From Escherichia phage vb_EcoS_bov11C2, in the sequence record MT884012.2: DNA of 44,700 bases; one strand, given 5' to 3'. Below the pieces are notes generated by a model. The model ran no database searches. It had not been told where the DNA came from and worked only from the letters and a program-made list of their open reading frames with translations. Position numbers and translations under genes: made by a program. Shown here in pieces: positions 1-44,700 of this stretch (positions are counted from its first letter, which is position 1; each line of letters starts with the position of its first letter).

Positions 1-55
1 TATAATCCCCCTTAGATGGCAGGGCCGTCTCCTATGTTGCCGATGGTCGGCGCAT

Positions 56-2023: not shown

Positions 2024-3544
2024 ATGACCGTTAACGTTGACAACCAGCACCCGCTCTATGCGCGCATTGCGCCAGAGTGGAAGATGATCCGCGATTGTGT
2101 AGCAGGGGAGCGCGCCGTGAAGGCGTGCGGCCCTTTGTACCTGCCTCATCCCGCCAGTGGCGACAATACTGACCCGAAAGCACGGGCGCGGTATAAGGCG
2201 TACAAGCAACGCGCGGTATTCCTGAACGCCACCGCCCGCACACTAAACGCGCTGTTAGGCGTCGCCTTTGCAAAACCTGTAAGTCTGGACCTTTCCGGGG
2301 TGATGGCTGACCTGATTGACGACGTAGACGGCAGCGGTATGCCATTGCCGCAACTTCTGCGCGGTGCTATGTCGGAAGTTCTGCAATCGGGACGCGCGGG
2401 CTTTATGGTGGACTACGACCGCCAGGCTAACTTTGATGAACTGGGTAACGTAGTGCCACAGACAGCCGCCGAGATGGCGGCACACCGACCGCTTATCCGC
2501 CTGTATACGGCAGAGCAGATCATCAACTGGCGGCAGACCCACGGCGTCGATACGCTAATTGTGCTGAAGGAAACGGACGAAATCAGCACCGAAGACCCTG
2601 ACGATTTCGCAAACCACGAAGTAACAATCTGGACCGAGCTTCGCATGATTGACGGCAAGGCACACGCCCGCCGCTGGTTTTACAACGCGGACACGTCCGA
2701 AGTGAAGATGGACTTGCCGCGAGGCTTCACCAGAACCGATCTTGTGCCGTTGGTGGATGCTTCCGGTAATGCGCTTACGCAACTACCGTTTTGCTGGTGC
2801 GGTGCGGTGGACAACAACGCAACGCCTGACGCCGCTCCGCTGGCGGATATCGCATCCATCAACATTAAGCACTACAACGCCGAAGCGGACGTCGCCGAGA
2901 TCGCGCACATCGTGGGTCAGCCTACCCTGGTTGCGACGGGCTTGACTCAATCATGGGCTGACAAGAACCTGAAGGGAGGCATTGCCCTCGGTGCGACTAA
3001 GGGCGTTATCCTGGGCCAGAACATGGACGCTAAACTGATCCAGGCGGAGGAGCGCAACTTGTCGGTTGCACTGTGTGAGCGTCGCGAATTGCAAATGGCT
3101 AAACTTGGCGCGGCCCTGGTCGAGAAGGGGACCGCACCTAAGACGGCAACCGAGGCGGCCTACGATGCGCAGACTGATAACAGTATCCTGTCGCTTATTG
3201 CCGGTAACGTTGAGAAGGCTTTCAACCGTGCGCTGCAAATCGTCCAACTCTTCACCGGTGACACCGCCGACCAGCGTGTGACGCTGAATAAGTTCTACAC
3301 CGAGATCACGGTTGATGCGCAGCTTATGACCGCGATGATGTCGGGTGTGCAGACGGGTACGGTCCGCCTGGCTGATTTCATCAAGTGGATGATGGCGCAG
3401 GGTGTCATCGACGACTCGCAAACCGTCGAGCAGGTTGAAGACGAATTGCGGAATCAGAATCCATTGCCTCAAATGTCCCCTGATGCGGTAGAATCTACCG
3501 AAGAAGACCCGGACAAGGTAGCGGACAATGGCGAAGACAATTAA
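2024..3544 (+). CDS. portal protein
   Basis: 506 aa ORF immediately after the large terminase, RBS AAGGA, acidic C-terminus; call rests on position and size. Confidence 0.75.
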   Translation: MTVNVDNQHPLYARIAPEWKMIRDCVAGERAVKACGPLYLPHPASGDNTDPKARARYKAYKQRAVFLNATARTLNALLGVAFAKPVSLDLSGVMADLIDDVDGSGMPLPQLLRGAMSEVLQSGRAGFMVDYDRQANFDELGNVVPQTAAEMAAHRPLIRLYTAEQIINWRQTHGVDTLIVLKETDEISTEDPDDFANHEVTIWTELRMIDGKAHARRWFYNADTSEVKMDLPRGFTRTDLVPLVDASGNALTQLPFCWCGAVDNNATPDAAPLADIASINIKHYNAEADVAEIAHIVGQPTLVATGLTQSWADKNLKGGIALGATKGVILGQNMDAKLIQAEERNLSVALCERRELQMAKLGAALVEKGTAPKTATEAAYDAQTDNSILSLIAGNVEKAFNRALQIVQLFTGDTADQRVTLNKFYTEITVDAQLMTAMMSGVQTGTVRLADFIKWMMAQGVIDDSQTVEQVEDELRNQNPLPQMSPDAVESTEEDPDKVADNGEDN

Positions 3545-4631
3545 TCAACATTTGGCGGATCGAATGATTCGCCGTCACATCTTCACCCAGCGCCTGAGCA
3601 ATGATCAGGCGCGGAGGGTGCTGGCTATGTGGGAGAAGTTCCGGCCCACTTTACTTGGTAAGCTGACCGAGTTACTTGATGGCAAAAAGTCCATGAGCAA
3701 CAAGGCACTTACCACACTGTTAACTCAACTCGACAAGACCGTCAAAACGGAACTGCGCGCCGAGTTTAAAGTGCTGGCGGAGAGCCTTCAGGAGTTCGCC
3801 GACGCCGAGGCTAATTATCTAGCAGACACACTAACGGCAGCGATCCAGCCCGCTGTCGCCGTACCGGCTGTTGAAGTAGTTGGCGTTGTTACCGGCGCGC
3901 AGATTGCAGCGACGGCAATGAAAAACCCGTTCCAGGGTAATACTATGATGCAATGGCCTGATTCCCTTTCCGAGTGGACCAGGACGCAGATCGGCAATCA
4001 GGTGCGCGCCGGATTCATCCAGGGAAAGCCAACGATGGAAATTATCGCGGACGTGAGGCGCGCGCTAGGCGGTCGTAGTGCGCAAGCCATCTCAAGCGTT
4101 GTTAAGTCCGCAGTCAACCACTATGCGGCGACCGCCCGCGAACTAATGGTAAAAGCAAATGACGATATTCTCGAAGGTCGCCAATGGTTATCTACATTGG
4201 ACACGCATACTTCTCCCATGTGCCAGCTACGCGATCGCCTGTTTTATCCGGTTGATGTTACTCCCGATACGAAAGGGAAGCGCGGCGGGAAAGTGGTGGC
4301 TGGATCACAATATGGCGCTGGTCCGGGCAAGCTACATTATTGCTGCCGTTCGACGGAGACGTGGAAAGTCAAAGGTATGGAAGATTGGCCCAGTGGTAAG
4401 CGTCCGGCACTGAAGGCTGACGCAGGCAGATTGCTGAGTGAGCAGGTAGACGCGCAGACTGATTTCTTCTCATGGGTGCAGCGCCAGCCGCGCCATATCC
4501 TGGAAGAATTATATGGAGTGCAACGCGCCGACCAGATTATGCGCGGCGTGAAAGTGCCGAAGATGTTCACCGATTCTGGTGAACTGATGACTATTGCACA
4601 GCTTAAAAACCGGGGGTTATGGCGTGATTAA
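3528..4631 (+). CDS. head morphogenesis protein (Mu F / SPP1 gp7-like)
   Basis: 367 aa ORF overlapping the portal stop; order terminase-portal-MuF-like is canonical; sequence features fit that family from memory. Confidence 0.7.
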   Translation: MAKTINQHLADRMIRRHIFTQRLSNDQARRVLAMWEKFRPTLLGKLTELLDGKKSMSNKALTTLLTQLDKTVKTELRAEFKVLAESLQEFADAEANYLADTLTAAIQPAVAVPAVEVVGVVTGAQIAATAMKNPFQGNTMMQWPDSLSEWTRTQIGNQVRAGFIQGKPTMEIIADVRRALGGRSAQAISSVVKSAVNHYAATARELMVKANDDILEGRQWLSTLDTHTSPMCQLRDRLFYPVDVTPDTKGKRGGKVVAGSQYGAGPGKLHYCCRSTETWKVKGMEDWPSGKRPALKADAGRLLSEQVDAQTDFFSWVQRQPRHILEELYGVQRADQIMRGVKVPKMFTDSGELMTIAQLKNRGLWRD

Positions 4632-4953
4632 ATATGCAGCGATTGGGCTGGTTATCGGTCTGGCGGTAGGATTCTGGCTAGGTGACTCCTATCGCGCGGG
4701 CGTAGTGGCGGAGGCAGCGCAAGAAGCGCAAGCCCAAGCCCAACGGCAGCAAACTAAAGTTGTTGAGCGCTCCGTGCAGGCAGAACAAGCCCGCGACGTA
4801 GAATACCGGACTATCACGAAAGAGGTTGTTAAATATGTTACGCGCCCTAACCGCCCTGATTGTAGTTTTGATGCTGAGCGCGTGCGGATCAAGCAACGCG
4901 CCGTTGATGCCGCTAACGGAGTCGGCGCTGCGACCGCCGTGCAAGTTCGATAA
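4624..4953 (+). CDS. i-spanin (Rz-like), putative
   Basis: GTG start overlapping the upstream stop, RBS GGGGG; N-terminal TM helix IKYAAIGLVIGLAVGFWLG then Ala/Gln-rich coiled-coil-like region; contains the o-spanin ORF in the +1 frame. Confidence 0.6.
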   Translation: MIKYAAIGLVIGLAVGFWLGDSYRAGVVAEAAQEAQAQAQRQQTKVVERSVQAEQARDVEYRTITKEVVKYVTRPNRPDCSFDAERVRIKQRAVDAANGVGAATAVQVR

Positions 4954-5065
4954 CCCGTCCGCGGACCCCGACGAAGATTTGATGATTGACGTGAAAAATA
5001 TGGAATGCGGGGCGAAGCTAAGGGCGCAGGTGCTGGAGTTGCAGCAAATAATTAAGGGGCCGTAA
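4835..5065 (+). CDS. o-spanin lipoprotein (Rz1-like), overlapped
   Basis: Signal peptide MLRALTALIVVLMLSAC with lipobox L-S-A-C, Pro-rich short mature part, RBS AGAGG 10 nt upstream; starts inside the i-spanin frame and extends past its stop. Confidence 0.65.
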   Translation: MLRALTALIVVLMLSACGSSNAPLMPLTESALRPPCKFDNPSADPDEDLMIDVKNMECGAKLRAQVLELQQIIKGP

Positions 5066-5077
5066 TGGCCCCTTTTT
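5056..5077. terminator. bidirectional intrinsic terminator
   Basis: GGGGCC-gtaat-GGCCCC followed by TTTTT; sits between convergent genes (o-spanin stop 5065, minus-strand gene end 5080). Confidence 0.7.
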
Positions 5078-5079
5078 CG

Positions 5080-5844
5080 TTAGCGCGGAATGCCGCAAAT
5101 CTCGTTAAGTGTCTTCACATCCAGCGCCACTGCCGTGGATTTTGGCTTGTCCGGGTACGGGATGAATTGCTCGACTTCAGGCCATGCCTTAATCAGCTTC
5201 TTGTCAGTATTGTGCAGGTCCAGCACACCGGTAACGGTCAACTTGAATGCGTCATACTTCGCACGCAATTCGCGGCGGGCCTGGTCGTTACGGTCCAGGC
5301 GCTTACAGAAGTCATGGTCCGCAGGGTAATCTGCGCGACCGCGAGGGAGATATATCGGCAGCGCTTTCCCGTCCTCGTCCACTTCGCACACTGACGCGAG
5401 CATAACTGTCTCGAACCCCGGAACGATATCGCCGAGATCAGGCGCGAGCTTATTCATATATTTCTCTTCCCAGTATCCGCGATGTACGCGGTATCGGCGA
5501 CCGTCACCGCTCAAGGACAAGGTGCGAACATTTCCGCCTGCGTTGATTTCGAAAGTGGCGTCGTAAACGCTGCCGATACCTTTCGGGCGGTCGGTGTTAT
5601 AACTATATGTCGCCTTGTTGGTGTATACACAGACGCCGTACATCTGCGACTGGTCGTCGCGAATTGCCTTGATATGCTCGCGGAGCGCTGCGAACGTGCG
5701 AATGCCTTCCGGCATACAGTCCAGCGTTATTGCGTACGCCAGATCGCGTGAGTCCATCATGATTTGTTTGGCTTCGGTTGCGATTTCGTGGTCGCGCAGG
5801 ATGTTAGATAGGATCTGATTTTTAATGTCTTTTGTCAGTCTCAT
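5080..5844 (-). CDS. hypothetical protein, antisense island in head module
   Basis: 254 aa ORF on the opposite strand to all surrounding late genes; no confident family assignment. Confidence 0.6.
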   Translation of the reverse strand: MRLTKDIKNQILSNILRDHEIATEAKQIMMDSRDLAYAITLDCMPEGIRTFAALREHIKAIRDDQSQMYGVCVYTNKATYSYNTDRPKGIGSVYDATFEINAGGNVRTLSLSGDGRRYRVHRGYWEEKYMNKLAPDLGDIVPGFETVMLASVCEVDEDGKALPIYLPRGRADYPADHDFCKRLDRNDQARRELRAKYDAFKLTVTGVLDLHNTDKKLIKAWPEVEQFIPYPDKPKSTAVALDVKTLNEICGIPR

Positions 5845-5883: not shown

Positions 5884-6198
5884 TTAGTTAAATTTGATGT
5901 TGCCGCCGGTTGAGGTTAAGCGAGCACATACAGATTCAACGGCATCGACGCACATGAAATCGTTAAAGGCTTCGACCAGGGCGTTTATGAAAGATGCCGG
6001 AACCAGGCCGCAAGCCGGATTATCGAATGTCGCGGAGTTGACCGCCGCTTTTGCCGCTTCAGAAGCATTCATGCTCTGGCACAGATTCAGCGCTTCCGCG
6101 TTACGCATTGCGTGAAAGGTAAAGGTATTCGCTACGGTAGCTTTATTGAAACGGGCCATTGCGGCGTCTACTGGAGTTGCTACGGTCATGTTAGTCAT
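5884..6198 (-). CDS. hypothetical protein (Ala-rich, about 104 aa)
   Basis: ATG at 6198 with RBS AAGGAAAA 8 nt upstream; alternative ATG 6213; first gene after the minus-strand promoter at 6218-6263. Confidence 0.55.
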   Translation of the reverse strand: MTNMTVATPVDAAMARFNKATVANTFTFHAMRNAEALNLCQSMNASEAAKAAVNSATFDNPACGLVPASFINALVEAFNDFMCVDAVESVCARLTSTGGNIKFN

Positions 6199-21123: not shown

Positions 21124-21147
21124 AAGGGGCCATATGGCCCCTTTTTT
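21124..21147. terminator. bidirectional intrinsic terminator
   Basis: AAGGGGCC-atat-GGCCCCTT then TTTTTT; between convergent J-like gene (ends 21118) and minus-strand gene (ends 21146). Confidence 0.7.
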
Positions 21148-22111
21148 AATACATGTTAGGGATGACGAGTAACGGGGTGGGTACGGTTATGTTGCGGTTA
21201 GGCATCTGGAATTGCTGCCGTGAGTAGTTACCAATCACGCGATTTCGAGCCGAGCTAACCACGTTGCCTGCCATGCGTATCCCGTTCATTCTCACGTGGT
21301 TGTATCCGCTGTTGTTCTCAATAAGCGCGCCGGTATATGAAAGCTGTACGAGGCTGTTACCGATATTCTGACCACCAGTGCCGATATTAATAACGGAATT
21401 GAGAACAAACGGCTTATTCACGGTAGAGAACGTGACCTGCCCCTGGTTGTTCGTCATGGTTATACCGGTCCCCGGTGATGGCGGCGTGTTATTGAAGATA
21501 ACCAAATCCAGGTCCACTTCGGCCCCTACGTCGTCGATCCCGCCATAAGACGAATTGCGGACGATGATATTACTGCCATCAAATCCTACCGACACGTTGC
21601 CATTATCCCAGCGCGCGAACGGGATACCGCCCACAGGCAAAGGCATACTACCGTTCACGTGCACGCGCTGCGCGTAGCGGCAGGTCATTAGCCGGGACAC
21701 GTTGGAAATCGCGGTGAAGTCTGTCGAGTTCGCCACCAGCAAGCCCGCATTGCGTGACCCCACCGGCAGCACTTCCATAATTATCCCCGCCCATTGAGGG
21801 AGGCCGCTGTAGGCGTTATACGCGTCCGCGCCTCGTAGAATAATTCCGCTATCCCCGTTGCGTTGTACCGACGTCACGTAGAACGGATCTGGAAGAACCA
21901 GCGTTTGGTCGAATACCTCAATCACTTCGACAGGGCGCGTGAGCGCAACGACAAGATCCGACCCAGGTGTTAGCGGGGTGTTAATGGTCAGCGTCTTGTC
22001 TGACTGGCAGCGTTGATCAAACGTAGTGCAGTATGACGGAGCGCGTAGACCGGCAGTTATCTCCATCACCGTCCTTCCGTCGTTGTAGTCTATAAGTATT
22101 CCAGCGCCCAT
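21146..22111 (-). CDS. beta-rich hypothetical protein, candidate receptor-binding protein
   Basis: ATG 22111 with RBS GGGAG (GTG 22120 alternative); Gly/Asn/Ser/Thr/Val-rich; opposite strand to tail genes, co-transcribed with the upstream lipoprotein gene. Confidence 0.55.
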   Translation of the reverse strand: MGAGILIDYNDGRTVMEITAGLRAPSYCTTFDQRCQSDKTLTINTPLTPGSDLVVALTRPVEVIEVFDQTLVLPDPFYVTSVQRNGDSGIILRGADAYNAYSGLPQWAGIIMEVLPVGSRNAGLLVANSTDFTAISNVSRLMTCRYAQRVHVNGSMPLPVGGIPFARWDNGNVSVGFDGSNIIVRNSSYGGIDDVGAEVDLDLVIFNNTPPSPGTGITMTNNQGQVTFSTVNKPFVLNSVINIGTGGQNIGNSLVQLSYTGALIENNSGYNHVRMNGIRMAGNVVSSARNRVIGNYSRQQFQMPNRNITVPTPLLVIPNMY

Positions 22112-22113
22112 AA

Positions 22114-22335
22114 TTACCACTCCCGAGATTTAACTGATACCGTACCAGAGAAGTTGCCGTCGCTATCCGCGGACAGGCCGGTGAAGCGCATATCCACATC
22201 TCCGGCAGGCACTTTTTGCCCATCGACGTAGCGCAACATGCAGCTACCGTAAGCTACCGTAATGCAATCGCCGTTGTTACGTTCTACCGCACAGCCGGAC
22301 AGAAGAACCGAACAAATCACAATTAATGTTTTCAT
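22114..22335 (-). CDS. small lipoprotein, candidate superinfection exclusion (Llp/Cor-like)
   Basis: ATG 22335 with RBS GGGAGA; signal peptide MKTLIVICSVLLSGC with lipobox L-S-G-C; mature part about 57 aa. Confidence 0.6.
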   Translation of the reverse strand: MKTLIVICSVLLSGCAVERNNGDCITVAYGSCMLRYVDGQKVPAGDVDMRFTGLSADSDGNFSGTVSVKSREW

Positions 22336-41840: not shown

Positions 41841-41876
41841 AGTCCCAGTGAGCTAAAACTTACTGGGACTTTTTTT
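41841..41876 (+). terminator. intrinsic terminator abutting the lysis cassette start
   Basis: Perfect 9-bp stem AGTCCCAGT / ACTGGGACT with 12-nt loop, then T7 running into ATG 41877. Confidence 0.7.
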
Positions 41877-42167
41877 ATGGATAAGCTAAACGAGTGGTTA
41901 TTTGCCATCGCATGTCTGGCTGGCGGCTTCGTAGGCGCACGCATTCATGGTGAGGCTACGAAGGGGCCGCTAAACTTTGTTTTGTATGTTGTAGTTGGCT
42001 TCCTGTGTGCCATATTTGGCGCACCGGCTATCGCTGAGTGGGCTGGTTTGTCGGGTGAGCGCACTGTCGCCGGTTTAGGCTTCGTAACCGCGATCTTCTG
42101 GATGCCAATCGCCGACCGGATCAGGGAGACTATTGCGTCGTTCCGACTTCCGGGGGGTGCAAAATGA
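41877..42167 (+). CDS. holin candidate (three predicted TM segments)
   Basis: 96 aa with three hydrophobic segments; immediately upstream of a second membrane protein and the endolysin. Confidence 0.5.
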   Translation: MDKLNEWLFAIACLAGGFVGARIHGEATKGPLNFVLYVVVGFLCAIFGAPAIAEWAGLSGERTVAGLGFVTAIFWMPIADRIRETIASFRLPGGAK

Positions 42168-42409
42168 TTATCTCCGTCCTGTTGTTTGTTATCATCGGGG
42201 CTTCGTCCCTGTTTAACGTGTATGCGCCGTCCGTCCGGGATGGCATTTTCGGTCGGGTGCTGTATCTGTTAACGGCAATGGTCTGTGTTATCGGATTGTT
42301 GCAAACAGGAGACGTATCTGATACCACCTGGACCGCGTTAATCTGGCTGTTTGCATTGCGCACGCTGCGTAATGCTGTTTTGAATGGGGTAAAACATGCG
42401 ATTCAGTGA
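42164..42409 (+). CDS. second small membrane protein (holin/antiholin candidate)
   Basis: 81 aa, two TM segments; ATGA overlap upstream; overlaps the endolysin start. Confidence 0.45.
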   Translation: MIISVLLFVIIGASSLFNVYAPSVRDGIFGRVLYLLTAMVCVIGLLQTGDVSDTTWTALIWLFALRTLRNAVLNGVKHAIQ

Positions 42410-42887
42410 CAACGGTCTGAGATTTACGGCAGCATGGGAGCAATTCAGCCCAGTGCCGTATTTCGCGACTAAGAAAGAGCAGGCCCGCGGCCTGTATACC
42501 TGGGGCTATGGTCACACCGGCACTAATCCGCCGCGGAGCATTACCCGTGCGGAGGCACTGGAGCTACTCAAGCGCGATGTGGTGTATGCCGAGAACTGGG
42601 TGAACAAGTACGCGCATAAGAGCATTAACCAGGCGCAATTCGACGCGCTGGTGGACCTGGTTATCAATGCAGGTCAAGGTCCGATCGTACCGGATGACGT
42701 CGCGAATGATTTCGATGATGCGGTCCGCCTGGGCGACTGGGCTAAGGTACGTGCTACTCTGCCGCAGTTCCGCAAGCAAGGTGGCGAAGTGCTTAAGGGT
42801 CTGGTGCGCCGTGCAATCGGCAGACAGGCGTTGTTTGATGGTAAGCAGTGGGACGTTGCCGAGAAAATCGGGCGTAACGCAGCATAA
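42396..42887 (+). CDS. endolysin (lysozyme-like muramidase)
   Basis: 163 aa; N-terminal KKEQARGLYTWGYGHTG resembles the catalytic Glu region of phage lysozyme-like enzymes; follows holin candidates. Confidence 0.65.
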   Translation: MRFSDNGLRFTAAWEQFSPVPYFATKKEQARGLYTWGYGHTGTNPPRSITRAEALELLKRDVVYAENWVNKYAHKSINQAQFDALVDLVINAGQGPIVPDDVANDFDDAVRLGDWAKVRATLPQFRKQGGEVLKGLVRRAIGRQALFDGKQWDVAEKIGRNAA

Positions 42888-42902: not shown

Positions 42903-43070
42903 ATGTTAAAAAGCATTCTTGATCATAACGCTGACGCGCTCGCAGCGCTGGCTAAAACCGAAGACCCTGGCGCACGCGCTATCATCGCGGACACTATCAG
43001 CCATGCAGGCGTCTTTGACGCGAAGCTGCCTAGCCCGCCGCCACAGGAAGAATCTGGCCCAGTGACGTAA
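42903..43070 (+). CDS. small hypothetical protein (55 aa)
   Basis: Not in track; ATG 42903 with RBS GAGGA; ends just before the terminator at 43077. Confidence 0.35.
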   Translation: MLKSILDHNADALAALAKTEDPGARAIIADTISHAGVFDAKLPSPPPQEESGPVT

Positions 43071-43076
43071 ACAATC

Positions 43077-43101
43077 AAGCCCGGTTAATTCCGGGCTTTT
43101 T
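43077..43101 (+). terminator. intrinsic terminator after lysis cassette
   Basis: AAGCCCGG-ttaatt-CCGGGCTT followed by TTTT. Confidence 0.7.
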
Positions 43102-43307
43102 ATTGCTTGACTCGCAACCAACACAGGGGCCATACTGCAACCAATCAACTGGAGGAGTAATCAAGATGGCACGTAAAGATATTTGGGTATTAGCGATCTG
43201 GACCACCGCGGCTTTTATCGGCATGGTTATTTGCGAATTGATATAGCCCGCCGCCATACGGACCGTGGTATATTGTCCACGGTCCACTAATCAGGAATTA
43301 ATTAAAT

Positions 43308-44666: not shown

Positions 44667-44692
44667 AGCCTGCCGATTTGGTGGGCTTTTTT
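44667..44692 (+). terminator. putative intrinsic terminator
   Basis: G-U-containing 9-bp stem with 3-nt loop then T6. Confidence 0.4.
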
Positions 44693-44700
44693 GTGCCTGT

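Follow-up and report, generated by a model that had tools for sequence, protein, structure and literature searches.

The window analyzed here, 44.7 kb in length, is a complete Dhillonvirus genome. Directly behind the gene for a MuF/SPP1 gp7-like head-morphogenesis protein, and in front of a minus-strand cassette, it carries two overlapping open reading frames, here called the i-spanin and the o-spanin genes (Table 1). The o-spanin frame begins within the i-spanin gene, in the +1 frame [(4835 − 4624) mod 3 = 1], and runs on for 112 nt beyond the i-spanin stop codon, giving an overlapped arrangement. On its 5' side, the i-spanin gene (GTG start at 4624) overlaps the stop codon of the head-morphogenesis gene (TAA, 4629 to 4631), and this overlap of start and stop suggests that the two genes are probably translationally coupled. 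At this locus, the feature table of the deposited record (MT884013.2) contains only the frame at 4624 to 4953, as hypothetical, and leaves the o-spanin without annotation; in many sister records as well, the o-spanin is omitted and the i-spanin is listed as hypothetical.

Table 1. Genes, protein motifs and predicted expression signals at the spanin locus and at the holin-endolysin cassette (E values as given by the profile searches)
Feature	Coordinates	Strand	Description
MuF/SPP1 gp7-like head-morphogenesis gene	3528..4631	+	Directly 5' of i-spanin; phrog_241 "head morphogenesis" (1.3e-117)
i-spanin Shine-Dalgarno GGGGG	4612..4616	+	From sequence; identical site recorded for HK578 (Kongari 2018 supplement)
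i-spanin gene	4624..4953	+	GTG start, 109 aa; ORF and translation; TMD at N terminus; Cys80 conserved in periplasmic domain
i-spanin transmembrane helix	4633..4683	+	Residues ca. 4 to 20, YAAIGLVIGLAVGFWLG; kept in 19/19 homologs
o-spanin Shine-Dalgarno GAGG	4822..4825	+	9 nt 5' of ATG; also recorded for EK99P-1 (Kongari 2018 supplement)
o-spanin gene	4835..5065	+	ATG start; 76-aa precursor, predicted 60-aa mature lipoprotein; +1 frame relative to i-spanin
Dual-coding overlap	4835..4953	+	119 nt; i-spanin residues 71 to 109, o-spanin residues 1 to 40
o-spanin lipobox L-S-A-C (residues 14 to 17)	4874..4885	+	Cys17, predicted lipidation site; Gly18 and Ser19 next
Bidirectional intrinsic terminator (predicted)	5054..5079	.	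Common to spanin unit (+) and convergent Nmad5 gene (-); scan matches on both strands
Strong hairpin + T7	41841..41877	+	Directly 5' of holin ATG (6 nt); scan; fold -23.4 kcal/mol, z -5.6
Two holin genes	41877..42167, 42164..42409	+	phrog_2359 (4.9e-32), phrog_2508 (1.7e-27), both "holin"
Endolysin gene, GH24-type lysozyme	42396..42887	+	PF00959 (1.5e-20)
Terminator-like hairpin + T-run	43077..43103	+	End of lysis cassette; scan; fold -16.4 kcal/mol, z -3.1; conserved
Terminator-like hairpin + T-run	44667..44692	+	5' of terS, overlaps -35 of junction promoter; scan and fold
-35 hexamer TTGGTG	44678..44683	+	Predicted promoter of terS-terL-portal-MuF-spanin unit; invariant in 5/5
-10 hexamer TATAAT	1..6	+	Extended TG at 44698-44699; 17-nt spacer to -35; invariant in 5/5

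The annotation as deposited, with 4624 to 4953 as its only entry here, corresponds to a reading in which just the first gene is real and 4835 to 5065 is a chance open frame, and the GC-rich phage DNA at this place does contain many spurious ORFs of 60 to 110 aa in other frames. Conservation argues against that reading. Both spanin frames were intact, with conserved starts and lipobox and no indels across 442 nt, in all 19 Dhillonvirus copies (80 to 97% DNA identity); the o-spanin ORF had exactly 76 codons, and kept its ATG, Shine-Dalgarno site and lipobox, in 19/19 homologs down to 80% DNA identity. Third-codon-position diversity was 0.204 in the i-frame over the segment coding for the i-spanin only (chi2, P = 1.6e-8) and 0.215 in the o-frame over the segment coding for the o-spanin only (P = 2.4e-4), and the pattern of codon-position variability changed from the i-frame to the o-frame at the end of the i-spanin gene. 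Along the same lines, the pN/pS ratio was 0.17 in the i-spanin frame, as opposed to 1.2 to 4.5 for wrong frames across both segments, while past the i-spanin stop, it was 0.13 in the o-spanin frame and >4 in the others. Within the 119-nt overlap, nucleotide diversity fell to a pi of 0.074, compared with flanking values of 0.104 and 0.112, and the synonymous diversity of the i-frame was halved. Each gene is under purifying selection in its proposed frame. This frame-specific selection refutes the second ORF as a chance frame, a reading that the match of its product to phrog_5672 (2.4e-26) also contradicts and to which we give practically no credence. The locus can serve as a worked example of how frame-switching codon periodicity validates an overlapped gene. 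When all six frames of the 44.7-kb window were scanned for ORFs with a lipoprotein signal, four distinct ones emerged, namely, the o-spanin, an annotated lipoprotein (22114 to 22335) and two that are antisense to annotated genes.

The features of the i-spanin are those of a type II inner-membrane protein, with one N-terminal transmembrane helix and a periplasmic part of 85 to 90 residues. On the Kyte-Doolittle scale, its hydrophobicity peaks in the 17-residue window from residue 1 onward (value of 1.95), residues 4 to 20 form the sole hydrophobic stretch, and the remainder is polar and charged. The o-spanin begins with the signal peptide MLRALTALIVVLMLSA, directly ahead of C17 and followed by G-S-S, and the lipobox reads L[ST]AC or MSAC in 19/19 homologs. 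The residue at position +2, after the lipobox Cys, is Gly, and there is no Asp, that is, no inner-membrane retention signal. Given the signal-peptidase-II signal (LSA before C17) and the absence of Asp after the Cys, the o-spanin is expected to receive a lipid anchor and to end up in the outer membrane. In the mature 60-residue protein, C36 and C58 are conserved, and there are an acidic motif (DPDEDL) and a C-terminal helix. These two cysteines and C80 of the i-spanin, periplasmic residues that could form intermolecular disulfide bonds, were invariant in 19/19 homologs and align with cysteines of a pair only 35 to 38% identical, encoded on the IMG/VR contig L022. AlphaFold2 models were built from single sequences and served only as weak secondary-structure hints: helices at residues 3 to 72 and 84 to 97 for the i-spanin, at low confidence (mean pLDDT of 59), and a similarly low-confidence model for the o-spanin (pLDDT of 56). 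For the HK578 i-spanin, ca. 51% helix and no predicted coiled coil are tabulated by Kongari 2018 (PMC6139136). The preliminary description had placed at 4624 an i-spanin with an N-terminal transmembrane helix, and in the +1 frame, extending past its stop, an o-spanin with the lipobox LSAC; the ORFs, their exact coordinates and frames, the hydropathy value and the 19 homologs all agree with it.

Profile searches assigned both proteins to "Rz-like spanin" families, with matches to phrog_2536 (5e-36, residues 1 to 108) for the i-spanin and, besides phrog_5672, to phrog_1267 (4.4e-12, residues 4 to 74) for the o-spanin. The i-spanin is identical at 105/109 positions (96%) to HK578_005, which was entered as an i-spanin by Kongari 2018 (PMC6139136), and the o-spanin at 70/76 positions to that of EK99P-1. 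Both of these phages belong to the short subfamily of the "Jersey" overlapped spanin family, together with JL1, EP23, SSL-2009a and SO-1, and the 119-nt overlap is given for HK578 and JL1 alike (Kongari 2018, PMC6139136). In the BASEL phage Bas18, the pair is annotated as i-spanin plus o-spanin. The earlier identification of an overlapped spanin pair is upheld by the PHROG matches and by the listing of the HK578 pair as spanins in Kongari 2018. Scanned against Pfam-A, neither protein matched any family at an E value of ≤0.1, the Rz (Phage_lysis) and Rz1 models included, and against NCBIfam, there were only insignificant signal-peptide matches. Membership in the lambda Rz/Rz1 sequence family was rejected for want of a meaningful match, and the pair is joined to lambda Rz/Rz1 by architecture, not by sequence.

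The lack of a Pfam Rz or Rz1 match would also suit a membrane protein and a lipoprotein with a role outside lysis, such as superinfection exclusion, receptor masking or an envelope function tied to head assembly. So would the position of the pair amid head genes, away from the lysis genes, and the fact that no experimental test of any "Jersey"-family spanin was found in the literature searched (Kongari 2018 assayed the T4 and T1 spanins, Jersey and HK578 not being among them [PMC6139136]). We nevertheless consider a nonlysis role very unlikely. In several unrelated groups of phages, homologs from the same PHROGs belong to conventional cassettes, right behind the endolysin gene: the order is holin-holin-endolysin-i-o on contig L022 (38% identity for the i-spanin and 35% for the o-spanin), and i-spanin homologs are found in the lysis cassettes of Roufvirus phages (endolysin-holin-i) and of a lambdoid Klebsiella prophage (holin-lysozyme-i). 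Moreover, the genome offers no other candidate for outer-membrane disruption. A genome-wide lipobox scan found no further spanin candidate in the rest of the sequence, and gp57 (42903 to 43070), an acidic protein encoded 3' of the endolysin gene, was ruled out as an alternative disruptor, having neither a TMD nor a lipobox. As for exclusion, the lipoprotein and membrane-protein pair beside the tail-tip gene (21146 to 22335, minus strand) would be a more typical candidate. We therefore regard it as highly probable that 4624 to 4953 and 4835 to 5065 encode a two-component i-/o-spanin pair, in the sense of Summer 2007 and Kongari 2018, acting in outer-membrane disruption.

The holin and endolysin genes of this phage, reported beforehand at 41877 to 42887, were recovered there by PHROG and Pfam. 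For the endolysin, the annotated start is at 42453; the resulting short form matches PF00959 from profile position 12, and Bas18 and 101114BS4 are annotated with a form of 163 aa. The true start is likely the ATG at 42396 (163 aa) rather than 42453. From the end of this cassette (42887) to the i-spanin start (4624), the distance is 6,436 nt across the record junction (36.8 kb on the linear record), in agreement with the separation of more than 6 kb put forward previously, and the location of the pair between the head-morphogenesis gene and the antisense cassette proved equally correct. The choice of the first base of the linear record was rejected as an artefactual source of this distance, since 48 other records run uninterrupted across the junction. 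Homologs elsewhere are genetically associated with holin and endolysin; the pair in this genome is not.

The transcription-unit layout consists of consensus-type predictions only. The predicted promoter (TTGGTG-17-TGtTATAAT) bridges the ends of the linear record, and the hairpin of the 5054 to 5079 terminator (fold of −20.9 kcal/mol, z of −3.2) takes in the o-spanin stop codon; this terminator is conserved, with the paired change AAGGGG/CCCCTT to CGGGGG/CCCCC(C/T). The hairpin at 44667 to 44692 is likewise conserved, with a stem change from T.G to C-G. In the hairpin ahead of the holin gene (41841 to 41877), the stem was invariant in 5/5 Dhillonviruses and only the T-run varied (T7 or T6), and the holin ribosome-binding site, GGGA, lies within the 3' arm. 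On these predicted signals, a division of the lysis genes between two transcription units is plausible. One long rightward late transcript would be another possibility, leading from the lysis cassette to the terminase, portal and head-morphogenesis genes and up to the terminator at 5054, with read-through of the hairpins at 43077 and 44667. All annotated genes from 36849 over the junction to 5065 are on the plus strand, and the stems of the predicted terminators are modest, at −15 to −16 kcal/mol. In addition, the strong hairpin 6 nt upstream of the holin leaves this gene no space for its own promoter, so that transcription in this phage must pass through hairpins of this kind. However, two conserved hairpin-plus-T-run sites, at 43077 to 43098 and 44667 to 44687, separate the cassette from terS, and a near-consensus extended −10 promoter, invariant in 5/5 genomes, lies just 5' of terS; we find a single transcript quite unlikely. 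The preliminary description had spoken of lysis genes split between two transcription units: the physical split stands, and the two units are predicted ones.

By analogy with lambda Rz/Rz1, the C-terminal regions of the i- and o-spanins would bind each other, forming complexes that reach across the periplasm, through the meshes of the peptidoglycan, and build up harmlessly in late infection. The holins (41877 to 42409) would then trigger, the lysozyme (42396 to 42887) would destroy the wall, and the spanin complexes, once freed, would gather into clusters and bring about fusion of the outer with the inner membrane, with virion release as the outcome. Since it would be the cell wall and not timing that restrains the spanins, late synthesis should suffice, and linkage to the holin and endolysin would be unnecessary, a point that this locus illustrates well. 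Late synthesis would fit with a spanin pair that closes the terS-terL-portal-head-morphogenesis unit, which would run from the predicted junction promoter to the terminator at 5054 to 5079; the holin-endolysin cassette would belong to the unit before it, behind hairpins of its own.

As a trait of the Dhillonvirus and Guernseyvirinae lineages, the split is not peculiar to this phage. A bolder proposal, which we consider doubtful, is that the spanins as the coupled tail of a terminase-portal-head-morphogenesis operon represent a selected regulatory design and not a neutral rearrangement. If it were true, spanin dosage would follow head production, while holin output would be attenuated separately, and the hairpin 5' of the holin, which buries the holin ribosome-binding site, would be part of the design. 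It would also account for the maintenance of the split in Dhillonvirus and all three Guernseyvirinae genera, in contrast to the related spanins of lambdoid and Roufvirus phages, which remain in the cassette.

The pair and its unusual location are already known for Dhillonvirus and its relatives (Jerseyvirus, Kagunavirus and Cornellvirus). What this genome contributes is the missing o-spanin annotation, which matters little beyond annotation itself: MT884013.2 and many sister records, with the o-spanin missing and the i-spanin hypothetical, can be corrected. The "Jersey" family covers >600 sequenced phages of Salmonella, Escherichia and Klebsiella, many of them isolated for biocontrol or therapy. 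Its apparent lack of an experimental test is a modest but real gap.

Compared with the "Jersey" short subfamily, the genes described here are essentially the same, with GTG and ATG starts, Shine-Dalgarno sites, lipobox, the 119-nt overlap and a genome position near 4.6 to 5.0 kb in common, and differ by a few substitutions only. The Guernseyvirinae (Jerseyvirus Ent3, Kagunavirus Golestan and Cornellvirus Shemara) have the same spanin family and carry the pair in the head module as well, between the head-morphogenesis and scaffold genes and far from holin and endolysin; for Schulenberg, an E. coli phage said to resemble Guernseyvirinae, the split has been noted in print. However, the i-spanin of Guernseyvirinae is longer (ca. 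128 aa), with no more than 35 to 60% identity over the C-terminal half, and a decoration or minus-strand gene separates the pair from the head-morphogenesis gene. In Shemara, the pair is of the "separated" kind, with an overlap of only 8 nt.

Lambda Rz/Rz1 is the prototype two-component spanin and closes the S-R-Rz/Rz1 cassette. The pair described here resembles it in its predicted parts and topology, with a type II inner-membrane protein and, read from the same DNA in the +1 frame, a small lipoprotein of the outer membrane, and in its periplasmic cysteines. There is no detectable sequence similarity to lambda (no Pfam match), and for the HK578 i-spanin, unlike that of lambda, Kongari's tables give no predicted coiled coil. 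The o-spanin gene here overlaps the i-spanin gene instead of being fully embedded in it, and the i-spanin is shorter than that of lambda. The pair lies 6.4 kb from the endolysin, whereas that of lambda is inside the cassette. The prototype of the overlapped architecture is P2 LysB/LysC, in which the o-spanin starts within the i-spanin gene and runs past its stop. This architecture is shared by the pair in our phage, but LysB/LysC lies inside the P2 lysis cassette. In Kongari's classification, it belongs to another family, and P2 heads an overlapped o-spanin family (Kongari 2018, PMC6139136). For lysis genes that are not clustered, T4 is the textbook precedent, with PseT.3/PseT.2 away from the holin (t) and endolysin (e) genes (PMC6139136). 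The T4 spanins are similar to ours in not being near holin and endolysin, but they are separated rather than overlapped and unrelated in sequence, and in T4, holin and endolysin are not linked to each other either.

The region 4400-5200 matched 153 phage records by megablast, five of them at 100% identity. Since one of these, MT884013.2 (Escherichia phage vb_EcoS_bov16_1, 44,700 bp), was identical at equal coordinates, the window is a complete Dhillonvirus genome. In the annotation of that record, 4624-4953 is a "hypothetical protein" and 4835-5065 carries no feature. The i-spanin ORF begins at a GTG located 8 nt 3' of a GGGGG run, and its sole hydrophobic segment is the N terminus, MIKYAAIGLVIGLAVGFWLGD. 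The o-spanin ORF, sharing an overlap of 119 nt with it, starts with a lipoprotein signal (MLRALTALIVVLMLSA directly followed by CGSS, with Gly after the Cys). The coordinates, frames, N-terminal transmembrane helix, lipobox, and overlapped architecture in the preliminary description agreed exactly with the sequence and the ORF table. A six-frame scan of the genome gave only four distinct ORFs with lipoprotein signals, namely, the o-spanin, an annotated lipoprotein, and two antisense to annotated genes. The annotated lipoprotein gene (22114-22335, minus strand; signal MKTLIVICSVLLSG followed by C; phrog_4281) lies beside that of a 320-aa membrane protein (phrog_1265, category "moron"), and the pair (21146-22335, minus strand) is flanked by the J-like tail-tip and lateral fibre genes, which lie on the opposite strand. 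This spot is typical for a receptor-blocking superinfection-exclusion function.

Features of the spanin and lysis regions, with predicted transcription signals
Feature	Position	Strand	Details
i-spanin ORF	4624-4953	+	GTG start, 109 aa
o-spanin ORF	4835-5065	+	ATG start 9 nt 3' of GAGG, +1 frame, 76 aa
Predicted terminator after o-spanin	5054-5079	both	GC-rich hairpin then T-run; -20.9 kcal/mol, z = -3.2
Terminator-like hairpin and T-run before holin	41841-41870	+	-23.4 kcal/mol, z -5.6
Holin 1	41877-42167	+	PHROG/Pfam
Holin 2	42164-42409	+	PHROG/Pfam
GH24 lysozyme (endolysin)	ends 42887	+	PHROG/Pfam
Terminator-like hairpin and T-run after lysis cassette	43077-43098	+	scan, fold
Terminator-like hairpin and T-run before terS	44667-44687	+	scan, fold
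Predicted promoter, junction-spanning	TTGGTG 44678-44683; TG-n-TATAAT 44698-44700 and 1-6	+	17-nt spacer; two record ends read together

To judge whether both ORFs are genuine genes, we compared the window with 18 further Dhillonvirus copies from GenBank and IMG/VR (80 to 97% DNA identity). The 442-nt alignment of these 19 copies had no indels, and all retained the GTG and ATG starts. The second ORF was precisely 76 codons long in every copy, its lipobox reading L[ST]AC or MSAC. The length of the first ORF was 109 aa, except in five divergent copies (L004, L013, L016, L018, and L019), where the last seven residues (4930-4953) were missing, leaving 102 aa and an overlap of 98 nt. Diversity (pi) was highest at first-frame position 3 in the i-only segment, 4624-4834 (0.204 versus 0.073 and 0.034; chi2 P = 1.6e-8), and at second-frame position 3 in the o-only segment, 4954-5062 (0.215 versus 0.091 and 0.026; P = 2.4e-4). 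The pN/pS ratios (Nei-Gojobori proportions) were 0.17 (i-spanin) and 0.13 (o-spanin) in the proposed frames versus 1.2 to 4.5 in the wrong frames of the same segments. Within the overlap, overall diversity was lower (0.074 versus 0.104 and 0.112 elsewhere) and first-frame synonymous diversity was halved (0.150 versus 0.279), as expected under dual coding. The first frame was dominant up to about 4929, where the conserved i-spanin motif KYVTRPNRPDCSFDAERVRIKQRAVDAAN coincides with the signal peptide and linker of the o-spanin. From 4930 on, third-position variation followed the second frame and not the first, consistent with an i-spanin tail that is dispensable and cut short in some relatives. 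The overlapped pair is thereby confirmed as real rather than a product of chance.

Regarding family identity, the i-spanin fell over its full length within phrog_2536 (5e-36) and the o-spanin within phrog_5672 (2.4e-26) and phrog_1267 (4.4e-12), all "Rz-like spanin." Pfam and NCBIfam scans gave no family match for either protein, indicating that the pair has no sequence kinship to lambda Rz/Rz1. Gene context provided independent support for spanin identity. In L022, an IMG/VR contig, two holins (phrog_198 and phrog_217) and an endolysin (phrog_181) are directly followed by two overlapped genes whose products, with shared PHROGs and aligned cysteines, have 38% and 35% identity to those of the window. 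A lambdoid Klebsiella prophage also has an i-spanin homolog behind its holin and lysozyme genes, 3' of antiterminator Q, and in Roufvirus phages such homologs come after endolysin and holin. The window contained no other candidate for outer membrane disruption; the gene that follows the endolysin (55 aa) lacks both a transmembrane domain and a lipobox.

The i-spanin comprises a transmembrane domain (about residues 4 to 20), an Ala/Gln/Glu-rich stretch, a conserved TRPNRPDC80 loop, and a short stretch, ERVRIKQRAVDAAN; the o-spanin comprises a predicted lipidated C17, a Pro-containing linker, C36, an acidic DPDEDL motif, C58, and a C-terminal stretch, AKLRAQVLELQQII. Single-sequence AlphaFold models of low confidence (pLDDT 59 and 56) placed helices at 3-72 and 84-97 of the i-spanin and at 53-73 of the o-spanin, which appears to match this layout in outline. 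For the steps beyond this parts list, we rely on the lambda model outlined in PMC6139136, where the spanins tested were those of T4 and T1 only. By analogy, the C-terminal regions of both proteins would pair across the periplasm, in complexes confined by the peptidoglycan mesh until the holin triggers and the wall is degraded; once freed, they would fuse the inner and outer membranes.

PHROG and Pfam bore out the holin and endolysin positions proposed earlier (41877-42887). Read rightward across the record ends, the order, all on the plus strand, is holin, holin, endolysin, gp57, metallophosphatase-like gene, gp59, terS, terL, portal, MuF-like head-morphogenesis gene, i-spanin, and o-spanin. 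The sequence runs uninterrupted through this junction in 48 other records, and the distance from the endolysin stop to the i-spanin start is 6,436 nt, in keeping with the separation of more than 6 kb originally described. The portal gene (2024-3544, plus strand; phrog_145 at 4.4e-137; DUF4055) is the "minor tail protein" of the record. The endolysin start in the record (42453, 144 aa) is probably misplaced; the ATG at 42396 gives a 163-aa form (42396-42887, plus strand), annotated in sister genomes, that recovers the N-terminal portion of the lysozyme domain and has a 14-nt overlap with the second holin. Just 3' of the lysis cassette terminator, an unannotated 26-aa ORF (43166-43246, plus strand; MARKDIWVLAIWTTAAFIGMVICELI), preceded by GGAGG as a strong ribosome-binding site, encodes a tiny membrane peptide with a single hydrophobic helix, adjoining the lysis genes; it is kept in four other Dhillonviruses with mostly synonymous changes.

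The pre-holin hairpin (12-bp stem, T7) ends 6 nt 5' of the holin ATG and carries the holin GGGA site in its 3' arm; the stem was invariant in five of five Dhillonviruses, with only the T-run length varying. Because there is no room for a promoter 3' of this hairpin, the holin seems to rely on terminator read-through, with hairpin-limited translation. The automatic promoter scan is blind across the record ends, and joining them revealed a near-consensus candidate with an extended -10 upstream of terS, overlapped by the terminator-like hairpin before that gene. This intergenic block was nearly invariant in five Dhillonviruses with differing flanking genes, more conserved than those genes, and its stem carries a T.G to C-G change. 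The scan found no plus-strand terminator or promoter candidates between terS and 5054, where a predicted bidirectional terminator begins that includes the o-spanin stop codon, its stem kept via a paired change in relatives. On the best reading of these signals, the spanins would close a unit for packaging and head assembly, in which the i-spanin start overlaps the TAA (4629-4631) of the gene before it, and the unit preceding this one would contain the holin-endolysin cassette. The two transcription units of the preliminary description are thus favored by the predicted hairpins and junction promoter, their separation being itself a prediction; read-through could instead yield one long transcript from the lysis cassette to the spanins. 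Converging on the spanins at the shared terminator is a minus-strand two-gene insert that precedes the scaffold gene, consisting of a full-length Nmad5 protein (5080-5844; "nucleotide modification associated domain 5," PF18757, 2.3e-60) and phrog_24635 (5884-6198). This insert may hint at DNA modification as a function of Dhillonvirus.

The segment 4624-5065 is already known as a catalogued member of a spanin family in the usual place for its lineage, and the remaining value of this analysis is an annotation correction for MT884013.2. The i-spanin had tblastn matches in 666 phage records. Kongari et al. 2018 (PMC6139136) assign HK578, EK99P-1, JL1, EP23, SSL-2009a, and SO-1 to the "Jersey" families of overlapped i-spanins and o-spanins. 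In the supplement, the two HK578 genes are located at 4569-4899 and 4780-5011 and have the same 119-nt overlap, Shine-Dalgarno sequence, and start as the window pair; the two i-spanins differ by 4 residues out of 109. The annotation of BASEL phage Oekolampad (Bas18) places an i-spanin and an o-spanin directly 3' of the minor capsid protein, and two holins and an endolysin at about 42 to 43 kb. The labels "Rz-like spanin" or "putative spanin" appear in several other Dhillonvirus records. A pair located between head-morphogenesis and scaffold genes, at a distance from the holins and endolysin, is also present in Jerseyvirus Ent3, Kagunavirus Golestan, and Cornellvirus Shemara. For phage Schulenberg, this separation is spelled out in the genome announcement (PMC6763661), and the classic precedent for unlinked spanins is T4 (PMC6139136).
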